DNA of 8,224 nt from Amoebophrya sp. A120 (taxonomy: Eukaryota > Protista > Dinoflagellata). Numbering within the stretch: position 1 is the stretch's first letter; the number at the start of each line of letters is the position of its first letter. The stretch spans positions 866,067 through 874,290 of the forward strand of contig CAJINV010000022.1 of NCBI GenBank assembly GCA_905178155.1, read 5' to 3'. Below the pieces are notes generated by a model, which made no database searches, was not told the origin of the DNA, and was given only the letters and a program-made list of their open reading frames with translations. Shown in pieces: positions 1 through 8,224 of this stretch. The position numbers and the translations under genes are program-made.

Positions 1-245
1 CGGGGCGCATGACCTCCAGCGGGCGGGGCGCATGACCTTCCGCGGCCGGGGCGCATGACCTCCAGCGGGCGGGGCGCATGACCTTCCGCGGGCAGGGCGG
101 GGCGCATGACCTCCAGCACGCGGGGCGCATGACCTTCCGCGGCCGGGGCGCGTGACCTCCAGCACGCGGGGCGCATGACCTCCAGCTGGCGGGGCGCATG
201 ACCTCCAGCACGCGGGGCGCATGACCTTCCGCGGCCGGGGCGCGT
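1..245. repeat. GC-rich 23-bp minisatellite, 10 full units plus a partial unit, running off the window start
   Basis: Units start at 1, 24, 47, 70, 98, 121, 144, 167, 190, 213 and 236. Core CGGGGCGCATGACCT followed by CCAGC-type or TCCGCGG-type tails; one unit is 28 bp. Confidence 0.95.
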
Positions 246-409
246 CAGGACTTTGCTCGCTGTGGCCACAGCGAAGAAATTTCCCTGGCGGACCTGTGTT
301 TGCAGTCCGACGCGTCGGACTGCAAATGCAGCATGAGCCCAGGACTTTGTTCGCTGTGGCCACAGCGAAGAAATTTCCCTGGCGGACGTCGGACTGCAAA
401 TGCAGCATG
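246..409. repeat. Two-copy direct repeat containing perfect palindromes
   Basis: 246-293 matches 340-387 (one mismatch seen) and 314-335 recurs at 388-409. Palindromes at 257-274, 299-326 and 350-369. Confidence 0.9.
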
Positions 410-436
410 GCCTATCCACACACGAGCATCACACCT

Positions 437-466
437 TTCCACACCCAGGCATCTTTGCAGTGAATA
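437..466. mobile_element. Right TIR of a family A element whose left end is presumably upstream of the window
   Basis: ttccacacccaggcatctttgcagtgaata aligns without gaps to the family A right end ttccagacccagacatttttgcatttgata. Confidence 0.6.
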
Positions 467-580
467 TGCACTAGAACGGAGCAAGCATCCGCCTTCGTTC
501 AAGCACGACAAGGACCGAGAATCCGGCCTCGCAGCGCTTTTCGAAAGGTACGCGAACCTCGGCGAAGGGGCAGAGGGGAA
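467..580 (+). CDS. Predicted exon 1 in view (ALERSKHPPSFKHDKDRESGLAALFERYANLGEGAEG)
   Basis: Lies between a family A right TIR (ends 466) and element F (starts 581). Same frame as ORF 300..599 and joins exon 2 in frame. Confidence 0.65.
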
Positions 581-3500
581 TATGAGAGTGCACAATTAGC
601 CCTGGCTTTACCTCATTTGTCATGCAAAATCCCCAATCCGAATGCTGCGTCGTGGCACTGTTTGCATGACAAATTCCAGAAAAGCGCAGGCCTCTCCACG
701 TGTGGGTGTGCCGGTCATTTTTGTATCGCTGTTTATGCCAACATGCAAATGAGGGGAACGAGGGGGGGTTGTGCCTTGTGCCGTCTCATAGGAAAAACGC
801 TCGTGCTAAATGGCAAGCGGGAAGTACTGGACACGTTGGCTGCTGCCGCTGCAAGTGGAAATCGCGACACGTCATCAAAAAATGTGGAACAAGATGAAGA
901 ATCGGAACGCGATGAAGAAACGGCCGAGCGAGTGGACATCCTAAACTTGTTCTTCGACGTCCTACCCTGCCGGGAGTATCTCTTAACCCACGTCACCAGC
1001 TTCTTTCTCTCCCCCCTGTCAATATGCATTGCAGAAGCATCGCATTTCTAGTAGGACTCCTTGCATTACAAATTTTCTCCACAGCATTAAGAATGGAATT
1101 TGTCGTGCTAATTTAGCTTGGAGAGGGACATTTGTTATGCGTGGCTTTCAATTACAACTACAAGTGCGACGGTTCTGTTGCACAGCATGACCAATCCTGT
1201 TAGACGACTTGCTGTTGCCCAGCCTTTATTAAATGCAAAAATGTCTGGGTCTGGAAGGATGCAAGATTTGTCATGCAGATTTCTCATGATCCATGATAGC
1301 CTGTGATGTATGCCCTAGCATTACAGATTTTTAGAAACCTTCCTGATGCACCTTCCGCATGAGAAATGCCCTGTCCGTGTAGCACAAACCGGACCCTCTT
1401 GCTGGTGGTCATGCAATACAATTTTTTTTAGAGTCCAAAAACAGCATGATAAGTTGCATTCTACTTCCCGACCCAGACATTTTTGCATTTGATAGCCTCG
1501 TTGGAGTTGCGACGGAGATGGACGAGCACCAAATATGATTTGCAAAAATGTCTGGGTCTGGAAAGATGCAGCGAATTTGTGTTGCTGAGTCTTGCATGCC
1601 GAAGCGGTCTCTTGTACGGCTTTCACGCATCACAAATTTTTCCAGTGGTATTGCGAGCTCTACCGTGTTTCGCATGACAAACTGGCTTTAGCACGACAAA
1701 AAAGCTGGCCCATCGCAGTCATGCATTACAGATCTGGTCGTCCTCCGAATTTCGCATCACAAATCCAGACCCAGACATATTTGCAATGCATAAAAAGCCG
1801 GCGTGAGCAAAAGTGGTGGAGCACCGGCTGATCGTATGGATTGCAAAAATGTCTGGGTCTGGAAGAATGCGCGATTTGTCATGCAGCTTTTTCATGACCC
1901 ATGAGGTCTGGAATGCAGGACCTAGCATGACAGCTTCTGTGCGATCTCTCTCATGATGCCTATCCTGCATGAGAAACTCCCTCCCGACTTGGCCAAAACT
2001 GGACGACTTTTGGTGATCATGCAACACAGATTTTTGCATGCTTCAGATTTAGCATGACAAGTTGCATTCTTCCAGACATCCAGACATATTTGCACTTGAT
2101 AGGCCTCGTTGGAGTTGCGACGGAGATGGACGAGCACCAAATATGATTTGCAAAAGTATCGTATTCGTATCTATAAAATGCATTACAAATTTTCCCAGCA
2201 TGAGGAATCAAGTTTGTAATGCGGTTTTACCTTGAAAAAAAAATTTGTAATGCAAGACTTGCATTTATACGAGTACGATGCTTTTGCACAGGATACGTGC
2301 GCGAGCCGCGGTTCGTGGTGAGGGAAATGCAAAAATGTCTGGATCTGGAAACTTGTGATGCAAGGAAGGGAATACGGCGCACACTGTGATGCAAATACGC
2401 TGCCAAGCATGACAAGTTTTTTCGTGGTTCTGAGTTGCGTACTCCGCATGAGAAACTGGGTCTTTGCATGACAGGCAAGAGGAGCTCTTTGCGGCTACGC
2501 AACACAGAGTCCAGAGTCATGCCAGACTAGCATGACAAACCTCGCAATCTCCCTGACCCAGACATTTTTACATTTGATAACAACCTGGCGTGAGCAAAAG
2601 TGGTGGAGAACCTCCGGCTGATCATCGCGGGGTAACGCAATCCAGCTCTTTGTCCACGACCTTATTGAGAGGAAAAACCCCCCCTCCCCATATCAAAACG
2701 AAGTTTCTGATGCTGGATTTGCGTACTCAAATCAGATCTGTCTTGCTGGCGAGGACTGCGGGCTCCTGCCAAGCCTGAGTAGAGAGCTTTTGGCCTAGGC
2801 GCTTAGCATGAGAAACTTCTATGCTGTAGGCCCAACAGCATGACAAACCGCCTGCATAGTGCGGCAGAGCCTGCGGAGTTGTCTTCTTGCACTACAGACG
2901 TGATTTGCGACCTCAAATAAGCAGCACAAATATTCGGAAACATGCCTTTTCGATATGAGGAGGGGGGATTTTTCCTCACAATAGACCTCGCAAACAGCCC
3001 TGAACCCCATATCCTGTGAAAAAACGTGGTTCCCACCCCAGAGTTGTATCTACAAGAACATTTGTGATGCCCATCCCGCCAATGAGAGGCATTTCTAATC
3101 GTGTTTTGGCATCTGTAAAAATACTGTAAACTGGATAAAAGTTCGCGTGTCCGTGTGATGCGGCTGTCGTCCGTGCTAGCCTTTACTGTACTCTACAGAT
3201 ACTAGAAACTTGTCCTGCGTGACTCTCGAGGCTTCTAGATTTGTGTAGCAAAATCCTGATCCTGACACTGGGCTGTTGATGTACTGGAAGAGAACATAAA
3301 AATAAAGCACAGAAAACTTATGAATTTTCGGGGTGGGAGCAACGCTTTTCCACAGAATACCCCTCCAGCCTTATCAAAAGGAAAAATCCCCCCTCCCCAT
3401 ACTGAAAAGGTATGTTTCTAAAAATTTGTGATGCTGATTTGTGAGNAAAAATGTCTGGGTCTGGAAGAATGCGCGATTTGTCATGCAGCTTTTTCATGAC

Positions 3501-6500
3501 CCATGAGGTCTGGAATGCAGGACCTAGCATGACAGCTTCTGTGCGATCTCTCTCATGATGCCTATCCTGCATGAGAAACTCCCTCCCGACTTGGCCAAAA
3601 CTGGACGACTTTTGGTGATCATGCAACACAGATTTTTGCATGCTTCAGATTTAGCATGACAAGTTGCATTCTTCCAGACATCCAGACATATTTGCACTTG
3701 ATAGGCCTCGTTGGAGTTGCGACGGAGATGGACGAGCACCAAATATGATTTGCAAAAGTATCGTATTCGTATCTATAAAATGCATTACAAATTTTCCCAG
3801 CATGAGGAATCAAGTTTGTAATGCGGTTTTACCTTGAAAAAAAAATTTGTAATGCAAGACTTGCATTTATACGAGTACGATGCTTTTGCACAGGATACGT
3901 GCGCGAGCCGCGGTTCGTGGTGAGGGAAATGCAAAAATGTCTGGATCTGGAAACTTGTGATGCAAGGAAGGGAATACGGCGCACACTGTGATGCAAATAC
4001 GCTGCCAAGCATGACAAGTTTTTTCGTGGTTCTGAGTTGCGTACTCCGCATGAGAAACTGGGTCTTTGCATGACAGGCAAGAGGAGCTCTTTGCGGCTAC
4101 GCAACACAGAGTCCAGAGTCATGCCAGACTAGCATGACAAACCTCGCAATCTCCCTGACCCAGACATTTTTACATTTGATAACAACCTGGCGTGAGCAAA
4201 AGTGGTGGAGAACCTCCGGCTGATCATCGCGGGGTAACGCAATCCAGCTCTTTGTCCACGACCTTATTGAGAGGAAAAACCCCCCCTCCCCATATCAAAA
4301 CGAAGTTTCTGATGCTGGATTTGCGTACTCAAATCAGATCTGTCTTGCTGGCGAGGACTGCGGGCTCCTGCCAAGCCTGAGTAGAGAGCTTTTGGCCTAG
4401 GCGCTTAGCATGAGAAACTTCTATGCTGTAGGCCCAACAGCATGACAAACCGCCTGCATAGTGCGGCAGAGCCTGCGGAGTTGTCTTCTTGCACTACAGA
4501 CGTGATTTGCGACCTCAAATAAGCAGCACAAATATTCGGAAACATGCCTTTTCGATATGAGGAGGGGGGATTTTTCCTCACAATAGACCTCGCAAACAGC
4601 CCTGAACCCCATATCCTGTGAAAAAACGTGGTTCCCACCCCAGAGTTGTATCTACAAGAACATTTGTGATGCCCATCCCGCCAATGAGAGGCATTTCTAA
4701 TCGTGTTTTGGCATCTGTAAAAATACTGTAAACTGGATAAAAGTTCGCGTGTCCGTGTGATGCGGCTGTCGTCCGTGCTAGCCTTTACTGTACTCTACAG
4801 ATACTAGAAACTTGTCCTGCGTGACTCTCGAGGCTTCTAGATTTGTGTAGCAAAATCCTGATCCTGACACTGGGCTGTTGATGTACTGGAAGAGAACATA
4901 AAAATAAAGCACAGAAAACTTATGAATTTTCGGGGTGGGAGCAACGCTTTTCCACAGAATACCCCTCCAGCCTTATCAAAAGGAAAAATCCCCCCTCCCC
5001 ATACTGAAAAGGTATGTTTCTAAAAATTTGTGATGCTGATTTGTGAGCACAAATCCTGTCTCTCTTGCAAGAGGGCAAACTCAGAGACTCCGCCACGATA
5101 TGCAGGCGATTTGTAATGCTGCAAGGCCTATAGGGCAGACGTTTGCCACGCTAGGGGCCTACACCAAGAGGCCCCTCCTTAGGCTTAGGATCTCCGTGCA
5201 GTCCTTTACTGCAAGACAAATGTGATTTGTGTACTCAAATACAGCAACACAGATTTCGTTTTCGACATGGGGAGGGGGAATTTTTCCTTTTGATAAGCCT
5301 GTATTTCTTCGGGCATGTGGTCCCCGGAAGAAACCTCGAATCCGACAGCCGACGCTCGAAGGACACCGCAAGATGCGTTTTCCACCCGGATCTGGTTTTT
5401 CCGAAAAATGAAGACGACCACCCTACGGCGCTGCAGCTTCCACCTGCACGAAACAAAACGCGTTTTTTCATCGAGGTTGGCGGCCACCAGGGGGACTGCA
5501 TTTTGCCCTGGGTTCTGTCCGGGGTTGCGGAAAAAGGAGTCTTCGTAGACGCGCACAACCCCGCCGTAAAAGCCGTGGAGAAAACGATGGCAGATCTGTT
5601 TTCGACAACCGAAAAACCGTCTCCAGCACCGGCCGCTGGCGTTTATGTTAACTCGTCATCATCCAGCAAGGATGATGAAATCTTCCTCGCACTGCAAAGT
5701 GCTTCCTCGCTTGTGGTCACGAAAAGCCGCTTTCTCGCCGATGACGCGCACAACAACCAGTGCTTCCAGCTACTGGACGCCGACTCGGTGGCGCAGAACG
5801 CGTATCAAATGCAAAAATGTCTGGGTCTGGGAGGTTGCAAGATTTGTCATGCAGATTTTGCATGACCCATATTATGCCTGTAATGCGTGGCCTAGCATCA
5901 CAGATTTTTAAAGCGCTTCCTCATGCCTATTCCGCATGACAAATGCCATCTCCGCGGAGCACAAAATCTACTCCTCTTACTGGTCACGCAATACAAAATT
6001 TTTTCGAATCCAGAGACAGCATCACAAGTTTAGGATCTTCCAGACCCAGACACTTTTGATCATTTGATAACGCGGGGAGCACGACCATAAGCATCAACGC
6101 GTTCCACTCGGCAGCGTTTTCCCCAGTGGAGTGTGCAGTAGCTGACACAAAAATGAGTGCTGGATCTGCAAACGCACCTGCGCCACCGCATTCTCCCGCA
6201 GGAGCCACGGTAGTCCAGATGGCAAGCTTGGACAGCATCGTACCGCCAGAAGTGCTGGATCGTGCGCCGGAGATGAATTATCGCTACACAGATCCACTGG
6301 GTGCTCCTGGTGTGGTTGACGCAGCTTCCTCTGCCACGTGGCCTAGCAACAGCACAACGTCCTCCTGTGTTCTCTACATGCGGCTGGCGCGGAACGAGTT
6401 TGCGGTGCTCGATATCAAATGTAAAAATGTCTGGGTCTGGAAGAATTCATGTTTGTCATGCTTGTCTGGCATGACTCTTAAATCTGTCATGCACGTTACC

Positions 6501-7188
6501 CAAGAGCTTCGCTTTTCTGTGATGCAGAAGCGCAGTTTGACATGCAGAATAGGCAACACCTAGGAGCTCAGAAACTTGTCATGCTGAGCCAGCATCTGTA
6601 GCCTCATCATGAGACGCCACCCAGCATCACAAGTTTCCAGACCCAGACATTTTTACATTTGGTACTCGAGGGTGCAAGACGACTTTTAAAAAACTGCGAG
6701 TTTGTCATGCTGTTATGTGAGTAAAAACATCCCCACGACCACCCCATGTTTGTCATGCCAATCTGCATGCCTAAAAATCATGTTTCTCATGCCTAGTCTC
6801 ATGGCAACCGTTCTTTTGCGATGGTGTTTTGGACATGCTAGAATTAGGACAAGCTGATCGATTTGTGTTGCGGCTATTTTACCAGAGAACACTGATTAGT
6901 GCAATGCTAGCCCAATAAACTTGTCATGCGCAACAGCCAAAAGCTCTCGACCTGTCCCTCTGTAGCAAGACTCCCATCTTGACGCCGGTGCTGGGGCGAG
7001 GACGTTTTTACGCACGATAAATCTCCGGAATCCATCACGAGGATTATCTGCTCTTGCGGAAGTGGCTCTTCAAAGAAGCGGGCTTTGTGCAGTTGATGGA
7101 TTTAGGGGAGCCTAACTTCCCTCGGAAGTACTATCGAAATACGCTTTTTCGACGAAAATTTGCAGACGTTGATGGCAGTACAAGTTGA
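467..7188 (+). CDS. Multi-exon gene (5' end outside window) encoding an FkbM-like (class I SAM-dependent) methyltransferase, ~543 aa visible
   Basis: Manual join of inter-element segments 467-580, 791-1022, 1190-1226, 1495-1533, 1793-1834, 2102-2141, 2580-2662, 2984-3009, 3360-3371 (=4962-4973), 5296-5802, 6070-6412, 6665-6713 and 7020-7188, dropping 5 nt per junction and collapsing the 1.6-kb duplicate. This gives 544 codons from 468 with one stop (TGA 7186-7188). FkbM-like motifs occur in order: FFIEVGGHQG, GVFVDAH, MASLDSIV, EFAVLEGARRLL (formed across a junction), LRKWLFKEAGF, NTLFRR. Family call is from motif recognition, not a search. Confidence 0.8.
581..790. mobile_element. TIR element / putative introner, family F (210 bp)
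   Basis: Left tatgagagtgcacaa; right end reverse-complements to tatgagacggcacaa; flanks GGGAA/GGAAA. Confidence 0.7.
791..1022 (+). CDS. Predicted exon 2 (GKTLVLNGKREVLDTL...EQDEESERDEE...TSFFLSPLS)
   Basis: Protein-like part of ORF 617..1051, bounded by elements F and D; frame is continuous on both sides. Confidence 0.7.
1023..1189. mobile_element. Degenerate TIR element / putative introner, family D (167 bp)
   Basis: Left tatgcattgcagaagcatcgca; right tgcgacggttctgttgcacagcatg; ends resemble those of 2142-2295; flanks GTCAA/ACCAA. Confidence 0.55.
1190..1226 (+). CDS. Predicted small exon 3 (ILLDDLLLPSL)
   Basis: Between elements D and A1; open in the frame carried from exon 2. Confidence 0.55.
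1227..1494. mobile_element. TIR element / putative introner A1 (268 bp)
   Basis: tattaaatgcaaaaatgtctgggtc ... gacccagacatttttgcatttgata; flanks GCCTT/GCCTC. Confidence 0.85.
1495..1533 (+). CDS. Predicted small exon 4 (LVGVATEMDEHQ)
   Basis: Between A1 and A2; identical to 2103-2141; in frame. Confidence 0.55.
1534..1792. mobile_element. TIR element / putative introner A2 (259 bp)
   Basis: tatgatttgcaaaaatgtctgggtctgga ... tccagacccagacatatttgcaatgcata; flanks eroded (CCAAA/AAAAG). Confidence 0.8.
1793..1834 (+). CDS. Predicted small exon 5 (GVSKSGGAPAD)
   Basis: Between A2 and A3; paralogous to the start of exon 7, differing by an in-frame 3-nt indel. Confidence 0.55.
1835..2101. mobile_element. 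TIR element / putative introner A3 (267 bp)
   Basis: tatggattgcaaaaatgtctgg ... ccagacatatttgcacttgata; flanks do not match (GATCG/GGCCT); left-truncated duplicate at 3447-3703. Confidence 0.8.
2102..2141 (+). CDS. Predicted small exon 6 (LVGVATEMDEHQ)
   Basis: Between A3 and the composite element; duplicate copy at 3704-3743. Confidence 0.55.
2142..2579. mobile_element. Composite element: family D body (2142-2295), short linker, and a family A element lacking its first bases (2325-2579)
   Basis: Internal inverted pair tgcaaaagtatcgtattcgtat / atacgagtacgatgcttttgca, then aaatgcaaaaatgtctggatctgg ... cccagacatttttacatttgata; outer flanks CCAAA/ACAAC; duplicate at 3744-4181. Confidence 0.7.
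2580..2662 (+). CDS. Predicted exon 7 (QPGVSKSGGEPPADHRGVTQSSSLSTT)
   Basis: The only + frame without a stop in this segment, and it is the frame the join requires; duplicate copy at 4182-4264. Confidence 0.6.
2663..2983. mobile_element. TIR element / putative introner B1 (321 bp)
   Basis: tattgagaggaaaaaccccccctccccatatc ... gatatgaggaggggggatttttcctcacaata; perfect flanking repeat GACCT; duplicate at 4265-4585. Confidence 0.85.
2984..3009 (+). CDS. Predicted micro-exon 8 (TSQTALNP)
   Basis: Between B1 and C; in frame; duplicate copy at 4586-4611. Confidence 0.5.
3010..3359. mobile_element. TIR element / putative introner, family C (350 bp)
   Basis: tatcctgtgaaaaaacgtggttcccacccc ... ggggtgggagcaacgcttttccacagaata; flanks CCCCA/CCCCT; duplicate at 4612-4961. 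Confidence 0.8.
3360..3371 (+). CDS. Predicted micro-exon 9 (12 nt between elements, 7 nt net)
   Basis: cccct-cc-agcct: two target-site repeats separated by 2 nt. Needed to keep the frame. Duplicate copy at 4962-4973. Confidence 0.45.
4974..5295. mobile_element. TIR element / putative introner B2 (322 bp)
   Basis: tatcaaaaggaaaaatccccctccccat-type left end ... atggggagggggaatttttccttttgata; perfect flanking repeat AGCCT; truncated duplicate at 3372-3445. Confidence 0.85.
5296..5802 (+). CDS. Predicted exon 10 carrying SAM-binding motif I (FFIEVGGHQG)
   Basis: Core of ORF 5227..5865, bounded by B2 and A5, each with a perfect 5-bp flanking repeat. Confidence 0.8.
5803..6069. mobile_element. 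TIR element / putative introner A5 (267 bp)
   Basis: tatcaaatgcaaaaatgtctgggtctgg ... ccagacccagacacttttgatcatttgata; perfect flanking repeat ACGCG; body similar to A1. Confidence 0.88.
6070..6412 (+). CDS. Predicted exon 11 (GSTTISINAF...MASLDSIV...NEFAVL)
   Basis: Frame of ORF 6126..6563; in frame with exon 10 after removing A5 and one ACGCG. Confidence 0.8.
6413..6664. mobile_element. TIR element / putative introner A6 (252 bp)
   Basis: tatcaaatgtaaaaatgtctgggtctggaa ... ttccagacccagacatttttacatttggta; perfect flanking repeat CTCGA. Confidence 0.88.
6665..6713 (+). CDS. Predicted exon 12 (LEGARRLLKNCEFVML)
   Basis: Completes the FkbM-like E-x-x-V-L-x-G-A-x-x-L-L motif after removing A6 and one CTCGA. 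Confidence 0.75.
6714..7019. mobile_element. Degenerate TIR element / putative introner, family E (306 bp)
   Basis: Left tatgtgagtaaaaacatcc; right end reverse-complements to tatcgtgcgtaaaaacgtcc; flanks eroded, but the element+5 rule keeps the frame. Confidence 0.65.
7020..7188 (+). CDS. Predicted last exon (SGIHHEDYLLLRKWLFKEAGFVQLMDLGEPNFPRKYYRNTLFRRKFADVDGSTS*)
   Basis: Open from 7021 to TGA 7186-7188; FkbM-like C-terminal L-x-x-x-x-G-F and N-x-L-F pattern; absent from the ORF track. Confidence 0.75.
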
Positions 7189-7446
7189 ATAGCAACATGA
7201 TCCCGCAAATGTGTTTGCTGGGAAAACATCCAGAAACCACCTGCACTCCTGTTTTTTACCTCGCCGTGCAGCTCGTCGAAATGCTGGCTGCGCGGATCAC
7301 TTTCTTTGTTCGACGAAGAATGTTTGATTCGTTATAGCACGTTTTTCCTTAGCAAAATGAGTAGTAGAATGAATGGCAAATAAAGTTTGCACTGCATTCC
7401 GTTGGCGTGTGCTGCTGGGTTCCAGCAATGGCCCCGAATGGGAGTC

Positions 7447-8224
7447 AAAATGCGAAGTAGAATTGCGTCAAGTGTTTTCTTTCTCCGCACACTGGCTCAG
7501 GGGGTATCTTGTAATTGGGGCGCAAAAGCAAACCCAAAATGCGAAGTATAATCGCGTCAAGTGTTTTCTTTCTGCGCACACTTGTGTCTCAGCGGGTATC
7601 TTCTAATTGGCGCGTAAAAGCAAACCCAAAAAGCAAAGTAGAATCGCGTAAAGTGTTTCCTTTCTGCGATCACTTTCACAGTGGCTGTCTTCTACTTCTT
7701 GGGGTTTCCAAAATAGAGCCCGAATCCCAAGTAGAATCGCATCAAGTGCTTTTGCCATACAATGCAGGAAAGAGGTGTTGCTAACTCCTCTCGCTGAGTT
7801 GCATTTCAGAGTCTTGTGGCTCCGCATTCAGCAGGGGTGCTGAACTGCGGCCGTGATCCAGCGCGCCAATATTTCTTTCTGCGAGCATTTTCTCAGCGGC
7901 CGTCTTCTGCTTCTTGGGGTTTCCAAAATAGAGACCGAATGCCAAGTAGAATCGCATCAAGTGCTTTTGCCATACGATGCAGGCAAGTTGGAATTGGGGG
8001 CTGCATTTTCGGGACTTTTGGCTTTCCATTCAGCTTCAGTGGTGTTGAATCGTGGCCAGCATCCACCTTACCGCAGGCGCCCAGTGGAATTGGGGTCGCA
8101 TTTTCGAGGCCTTTGGCTTCACATGCAGCAGTGGCGCTGAATCGTGGCCAAGATCCACCATACCACCGGCGCCCAGTGGAAAGGGGGTCGCATTTTCGAG
8201 ACCTTTGACTTCGCATTCAGCAGT
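7447..8224. repeat. Degenerate ~90-bp tandem repeat array with several subtypes
   Basis: aagtagaatcgc-like core at 7455, 7544, 7636, 7729 and 7944; ~105-bp block at 7661-7767 repeated at 7876-7983; ggaattgggg-like units at 7990, 8086 and 8178. Confidence 0.85.

Follow-up and report, generated by a model that had tools for sequence, protein, structure and literature searches.

How are inserts without GT-AG ends removed from the transcript of a protein-coding gene? We analyzed an 8,224-nt stretch of the genome of the dinoflagellate Amoebophrya sp. A120 (hereafter, the window), in which 13 inserts, each 154-350 nt long and bounded by inverted repeats, split a single reading frame of the plus strand (Table 1). 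An earlier note on this sequence had proposed that none of the junctions can be read as GT-AG and that the paired ends of the elements may define the splice sites.

Twelve of the elements start with TAT on the plus strand and their right ends read ATA in ten cases, ATG once (1189) and GTA once (6664), exactly as the earlier note had described them. The thirteenth element (2321-2579) starts with AGG instead of TAT, and the right end (ATA) of a fourteenth is found at position 466. The end-to-end complementarity reported for these elements was also recovered: 276 of 336 aligned columns are Watson-Crick pairs (first 25 nt of the arms, 13 elements). The arms vary between families yet match inside each element, at constant offsets. 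Elements 2321 and 6413 belong to the same family and are inverse copies; 2663 and 4974 are likewise inverse copies. Relative to 20 dinucleotide shuffles each, 11 of the 13 elements present a better predicted fold (z from -2.9 to -12.7; z = -7.4 for element 6413 with its flanks). The two exceptions, 581 and 6714, do not differ from their shuffles in this way (z = -0.9 and +0.5, respectively); they have 13 and 17 expected end-to-end pairs. The predicted pairing of the tips is low at elements 1023, 2142 and 2321.

We then compared the sequences flanking each element. At length 5, 42 of 60 flank letters are identical, relative to 22-38% at lengths 3, 4, 6, 7 and 8. The 5-nt overlap of the earlier note thus stands out as a length, but the direct repeat is perfect in just four of 12 elements. 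In A120, Farhat et al. (2021; PMC7789003) describe introner repeats made of TAT, seven nucleotides and at least three A, with direct repeats of 3-5 nt. The elements of the window present TAT followed by seven variable bases and at least three A (the A-run is loosely matched in 581 and 1023, two small elements, and element 2321 lacks the TAT), and the direct repeat at their exon/intron boundaries falls within the published range. They also present the properties of MITEs: they are short, non-coding and bounded by terminal inverted repeats and a target duplication of fixed length. The elements recur elsewhere in the genome, with 20,921 contigs of the DNA-like run X1 matching 3 kb. No Rfam model, of self-splicing or other RNA families, matched within the window at its gathering score. 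We read the inserts as non-autonomous copies of inverted-repeat transposons with 5-bp target duplications.

Table 1. Features of the window, with the element inside each intron and the first and last two bases of the intron
Feature	Positions	Strand	Element	Ends	Evidence or remark
Upstream intron, 3' part	1..470	+			right tip (ATA) of a 14th element at 466; left end beyond window
Protein-coding gene, 3' part, 14 exons (predicted)	471..7188	+			last 548 of 691 aa of P0001
Intron	580..794	+	581-790	AT..AA	X3 joint 578 to 794, registers 3-5
Intron	1022..1193	+	1023-1189 (right end ATG)	AT..CA	gene model P0001, register at least 2; orthologue ungapped
Intron	1226..1498	+	1227-1494	TT..CT	gene model P0001; orthologue ungapped
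Intron	1533..1796	+	1534-1792	AT..AA	gene model P0001, registers 2-4
Intron	1834..2105	+	1835-2101	GT..CC	X4 joint, registers 3-4, one contig
Intron	2141..2299	+	2142-2295	AT..TG	gene model P0001, registers 3-4; flanking 5-mers match 1/5
Intron	2318..2583	+	2321-2579 (without left TAT)	GT..AA	donor likely GTGAGG at 2318 (P0001)
Intron	2662..2987	+	2663-2983	TT..CC	joint 4259-4586 on second copy, X3, X6, X7
Intron	3009..3363	+	3010-3359	AT..CC	joint 4610-TCC-5296, X3, X6, X7, registers 0-4
Intron	4973..5299	+	3372/4974-5295	TT..CC	joint 4610-TCC-5296; cut-off first copy 3372-3445
Intron	5802..6073	+	5803-6069	GT..GC	joint 5796-6069 in X3, X4, X6
Intron	6412..6668	+	6413-6664 (right end GTA)	AT..CG	joint 6407-6665, 4/4 runs
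Intron	6713..7023	+	6714-7019	TT..TC	joint 6712-7024, 4/4 runs, registers 4-5; 5-mers match 2/5
N + exact second copy of 1845-3445	3446..5047	.			copy 3447-5047, 0 mismatches in 1601

None of the 12 TAT elements offers GT-AG or GC-AG on the plus strand in any of the six registers, which upholds the earlier claim for this strand, and the GT/GC-AG ends of a canonical U2 intron were found in 0 of 13 elements. On the minus strand, one of the registers reads GT-AG at element 2663 and GC-AG at elements 1227 and 4974; the gene itself lies on the plus strand. The minus-strand GT-AG of 2663-2983 could lead unstranded aligners to call a canonical intron on the wrong strand. When 5-mers are drawn from the exons, a canonical register is expected by chance in 3.4% of the elements, and the probability of finding none in 12 elements is therefore about 0.66. 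The missing GT-AG is by itself at chance level, and it is the exact removal of the elements that is non-random.

The predicted gene encodes the C-terminal part of protein P0001, 143 amino acids of which are encoded upstream. P0001 carries the name Amoebophrya sp. A120; the long exon 5302-5802 matches it at 100% identity and, among longer proteins, has one further match, an A25 protein. This A25 orthologue is 36% identical (E = 1e-78) and aligns without gaps over junctions 1023, 1227, 6413 and 6714. We defined the register as the number of letters of the left 5-mer that are retained in the exon. Once the 13 introns are removed, the 548 amino acids of P0001 are recovered without mismatch at registers 3 or 4, and registers 0, 1, 2 and 5 all give mismatches. 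Neither the exons nor P0001 or P0002 matched an entry of Pfam, NCBIfam or PDB. The conserved protein stretches encoded by 5296-5802 and 6070-7188 bear some resemblance to an FkbM-like methyltransferase. The coding sequence also contains an internal repeat (1495-1533, 2102-2141, 1793-1834 and 2580-2620). Elements 1534 and 2142 are preceded by the same exon sequence and have their first 14 nt in common, with different bodies; the left end of element 2142, whose direct repeat matches at one of five letters, may have arrived together with a duplicated exon. Several exons between elements are tiny (3360-3371, 7 nt; 2296-2320, 18 nt; 2984-3009, 21 nt), and those of 7 and 21 nt are present in joined contigs.

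The removal of the elements was observed in assembled contigs from four runs of one sample, which are probably RNA, a status that is guessed, and which may themselves underlie the gene model. In these contigs the element plus 5 nt is skipped at eight of 13 elements (581, 1835, 2663, 3010, 4974, 5803, 6413 and 6714), in agreement with the exact, non-canonical removal that had been predicted. One contig (X3 record 9) enters the window at 469, next to the 3' end of the upstream intron. Junctions 1023, 1227, 1534 and 2142 are not among the joints listed and were taken from gene model P0001. The raw-read RNA runs X9 and X10 gave no reads on the exons of this gene and just reads of other copies of the elements. 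The joined contigs end 30-180 nt past the stop codon. Joints at canonical GT-AG sites near the elements, which the earlier note had named as the observation that would speak against its reading, were absent among these eight. Elements 1835 and 5803 are informative in this respect: each has a donor GT by coincidence and an in-frame AG (at 2101-2102, 3 nt from the acceptor, and at 6078-6079, 6 nt from the acceptor, respectively), and both AG are unused.

The position of the cut can be read at the joints with unlike flanks, two of which (1835 and 6714) the earlier note had singled out for this purpose. These joints allow registers 3-5 (581), 3-4 (1835), 0-4 (3010) and 4-5 (6714), so register 4, the sole one common to all, is defined by four informative joints, two of them from single contigs. 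One register fits all joints, and the intron is then N-TAT...ATA-NNNN, with cuts 1 nt upstream of the left TAT and 4 nt downstream of the right ATA. At this register, T is found at intron position +2 in 13 of 13 elements. Likewise, T is the second letter in nine of nine predominant A120 motifs given in Table S4 of Farhat et al. (PMC7789003). At element 2321 the acceptor is still 4 nt past ATA, as the contig pieces begin at 2584 and at 4186 (X3 and X4). We also considered 2142-2579 as a single compound intron and rejected this possibility: P0001 has a six-residue exon inside, and the pieces start at 2584 rather than at 2581.

We extended the analysis to a larger sample with a motif scan that yielded 134 loci from one metagenome assembly; no RNA stands behind these loci. 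This assembly comes from a close relative, since an A120 protein falls into the same 90% cluster as one protein of the assembly; a second protein had no relative within the lengths searched. After removing seven duplicates from 290 elements, we obtained 283 distinct TAT..ATA elements, of which 216 present a perfect 5-nt duplication. Across these 283 elements, the identity of the duplication reaches 0.88 at length 5 versus 0.23-0.31 at lengths 2-4 and 6-9, none of which rises above chance. Twelve of the 13 elements of the window match the 134 loci over at least 70% of their length, with up to 97.6% identity; element 581 has no match over 70% of its length in these loci. A codon model oriented 185 elements, with consistent orientations in 47 of 49 multi-element loci; 30 of the 283 were left out with fewer than three of five matching flank letters, and 68 more were not orientable. 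Among the 185 oriented elements, G at +1 (56), terminal AG (12) and GT..AG (3) are all at chance. The profiles of the 5' and 3' arms of the relative's oriented elements are alike, and G at +5 is not favored at the 5' arm (49 versus 66 at the 3' arm). A test of A/T drift in mismatched duplications (17 rows) gave, at positions 2-3, A/T on the left in six cases and on the right in none, a result partly contrary to register 4. At this register, the insertion phase is skewed to phase 0 (85/48/52; P = 0.001). We did not take this skew as support for the register, because a symmetric, codon-centered target preference could give the same result. The duplication also has relatively few T as its fourth letter (22 of 185). 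In one locus of the relative (L033, positions 2-2176), a long exon encodes TRIP4 and ASCH domains; PF13532 is present in addition in its relatives.

Do the paired tips define the splice sites? This claim of the earlier note was borne out in part, in that the distance between the cut and the element ends is constant, but the role given to pairing of the tips was weakened. On the sense strand, G.U pairs are not favored over A.C pairs, either in the window (21 versus 21) or in 176 elements of the relative (114 versus 142; the 185 oriented elements minus nine with gapped arms). With one tip left free in the search, a changed tip was found in 17 of 252 elements. We counted one change at the T/A of the 5' tip (+2/+3) and 11 at the 3' positions that face them (P = 0.006); without five weakly oriented cases, the orientation being given by the codon model, this becomes 1 versus 6 (P = 0.125). 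The lone 5' change is a G at +3, which is compatible with GU-R. Position +4 goes the other way (four changes versus one at its 3' partner). Pairing is lost in six of the 11 mutants of the two outermost positions of the 3' tip. Both tip variants of the window (ATG and GTA) retain a G.U pair, and the acceptor of element 2321 is in place although its tip is unpaired. Judging from sequence comparison, pairing of the very tips looks dispensable. No order of branch point, pyrimidines and AG is visible in these elements. The motif TTGAT before the last A was considered as a branch point and rejected: it fits about half of the right ends and sits inside the stem.

We infer, with slightly better than even confidence, that these introns are removed by a relaxed U2-type spliceosome that reads N-U-A and finds the acceptor by distance. 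The TAT of the element would supply the U at +2 and the A at +3 that a GURAG donor also has, and the first base and the last four bases of the intron would come from the duplicated target and be unconstrained. Because TAT fixes +2/+3 and the rest comes from the target, the donor would be read as N-U-A, with G+1 and the terminal AG ignored. The acceptor would be placed by its distance from the 3' arm of the element, the long terminal stem would likely join the two ends in place of the U1 step, and pairing of the three tip bases would likely not be required. Since both arms are alike, an element should work in either orientation, and, since the coding sequence is intact again once the element and one duplication copy are gone, such transposons could fill exons. 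In the gene model, the TAT-less element 2321 likely moves to the donor GTGAGG, which fits a donor that is read as sequence. According to Farhat et al. (PMC7789003), 83 of 89 spliceosomal proteins are retained in A120, as are U2, U4, U5 and U6; U1 was not found, and snRNP27 was not detected (Table S6). In yeasts, loss of SNRNP27K accompanies +4U donors (PMC11732430), and by weak analogy the +4U of these elements might be in line with the absence of snRNP27. A more specific version, in which a spliceosome without U1 dispenses with G+1 and the terminal AG, takes an N-U-A donor and cuts four bases past the transposon arm, is offered tentatively and may well prove wrong. If true, a single rule would account for tens of thousands of introns whose ends have been called "variable", and a symmetric transposon would be a perfect intron in both orientations.

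Two other readings concern the role of the stem. In the first, which we consider unlikely though worth keeping in mind, a non-spliceosomal enzyme, as has been proposed for euglenids, would recognize the terminal stem, cut at fixed distances and ligate the exons, releasing a circular or linear intron. The strong predicted stems of 11 of the 13 elements, the fixed offsets from the stem, the missing G+1 and AG and the retained G.U pair of the ATG and GTA tips are all consistent with such a route, and the paired-end introns of euglenids are indeed released as circles (PMC11282704). However, the tip mutations are one-sided, pairing is lost in six of the 11 3' mutants, and there is no overall bias toward G.U. 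In addition, the gene model gives the TAT-less element 2321 a textbook donor (GTGAG), and 15% of the canonical introns of A120 share the repeat anatomy (PMC7789003). Conversely, the spliceosome might act without any pairing of the ends, the inverted repeats being a transposon relic and each arm being read as sequence by a protein. Inverted repeats are expected of transposons anyway, there is no excess of sense-strand G.U pairs, and elements 581 and 6714 are removed although they fold like shuffled sequences. Those two elements still retain their expected end-to-end pairs, however, and the arms match within each element while differing between families at fixed offsets, so this reading appears improbable.

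The joints themselves might not reflect splicing. Template switching classically occurs where a stem adjoins a direct repeat, and removal is known here from assembled contigs; the joints could then be switches of the reverse transcriptase at the direct repeats next to a hairpin, or canonical ends could be produced by RNA editing. Such an origin is very improbable: the joints at 1835 and 6714 are exact though just two of five letters are repeated, and the spliced frame is open over 548 amino acids and ungapped relative to the A25 orthologue at the junctions given above. As for editing, Table S5 of PMC7789003 places it at the ends of about 3-4% of A120 introns. The elements could also be excised precisely from DNA in some life stage, like the internal eliminated sequences of ciliates, an alternative that the earlier note had listed. 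Their transposon anatomy would agree with excision, and the runs that carry the joints are RNA just by guess. However, contigs of run X1, judged DNA-like by its even cover of introns, are unbroken over 400-1255 and 2954-3397 and thus keep elements 581, 1023 and 3010, which speaks against common element-free alleles (rare alleles are dropped from contigs). The joined contigs also stop shortly after the stop codon, and introns of this kind were defined from RNA-seq (PMC7789003). Excision at the DNA level therefore has, in our view, hardly any likelihood.

The phenomenon is already known, since Farhat et al. (2021; PMC7789003) describe introner elements in the same strain with TAT+7+AAA repeats, direct repeats at the junctions, a length of about 240 nt and no GT-AG. 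The elements analyzed here are of the same kind; the differences are that the duplication is sharply 5 nt and that one register fits all joints, whereas the available text of that paper calls the splice sites variable relative to the hairpin. The same text proposes joining by the hairpin, notes the missing U1, and reports that an autonomous transposase partner was not found in A120. In the parts available, PMC11453091 restates these results, a 2024 review (PMC11282704) repeats them and leaves the mechanism open, and PMC13149111 does not mention these organisms. Gozashti et al. (2025; PMC12130899) trace A120 introners to diverse inverted-repeat DNA transposons, with tens per gene; in the text available, that study is about mobilization rather than splicing chemistry. 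The MITE-derived introns of Fritillaria borealis likewise present inverted repeats, target duplications and non-canonical ends, and their removal is ascribed to an altered U2 spliceosome (Henriet 2019, via PMC11282704). In F. borealis, however, AG-AC and AG-AT dominate, whereas here +1 and the last four bases are free. The nonconventional introns of euglenids also share an inset terminal stem, junction duplications and a probable MITE origin (PMC11282704), but their stem lies at +4..+6/-8..-6 and circles are formed, whereas here the stem starts from +2/-5 and it seems to be the sequence of the donor that is read. The single register, the one-sided conservation of the tips and the GT-donor variant were not found in the literature text searched; the figures or supplement of PMC7789003 may show the register. 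A fixed register would reduce many published splice motifs to one rule and would fix gene prediction in these genomes. If removal is spliceosomal, two near-universal contacts (G+1 and the 3' AG) would be dispensable in a living eukaryote. The gene itself contains natural test cases: one element that lacks its left tip, two whose tips form a G.U pair, two where an in-frame AG goes unused and one with hardly any direct repeat.

Finally, we examined the 1601-nt duplication of the window (Table 1). The depth of X1 contigs, a rough measure, is 42 and 50 inside the duplication versus 43 and 36 outside; no backward joint was found among the six joints listed, and P0001 holds the duplicated exons once. 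The duplication is likely an assembly artefact, in which two overlapping contigs were joined unmerged. The flanks of the window are repetitive as well. Within the upstream intron, positions 1-243 consist of 10.3 copies of a GC-rich 23-nt tandem repeat, and 3' of the stop codon we observed two 92-nt tandem repeats of about 2.5 copies each (7446-7675 and 7989-8224).
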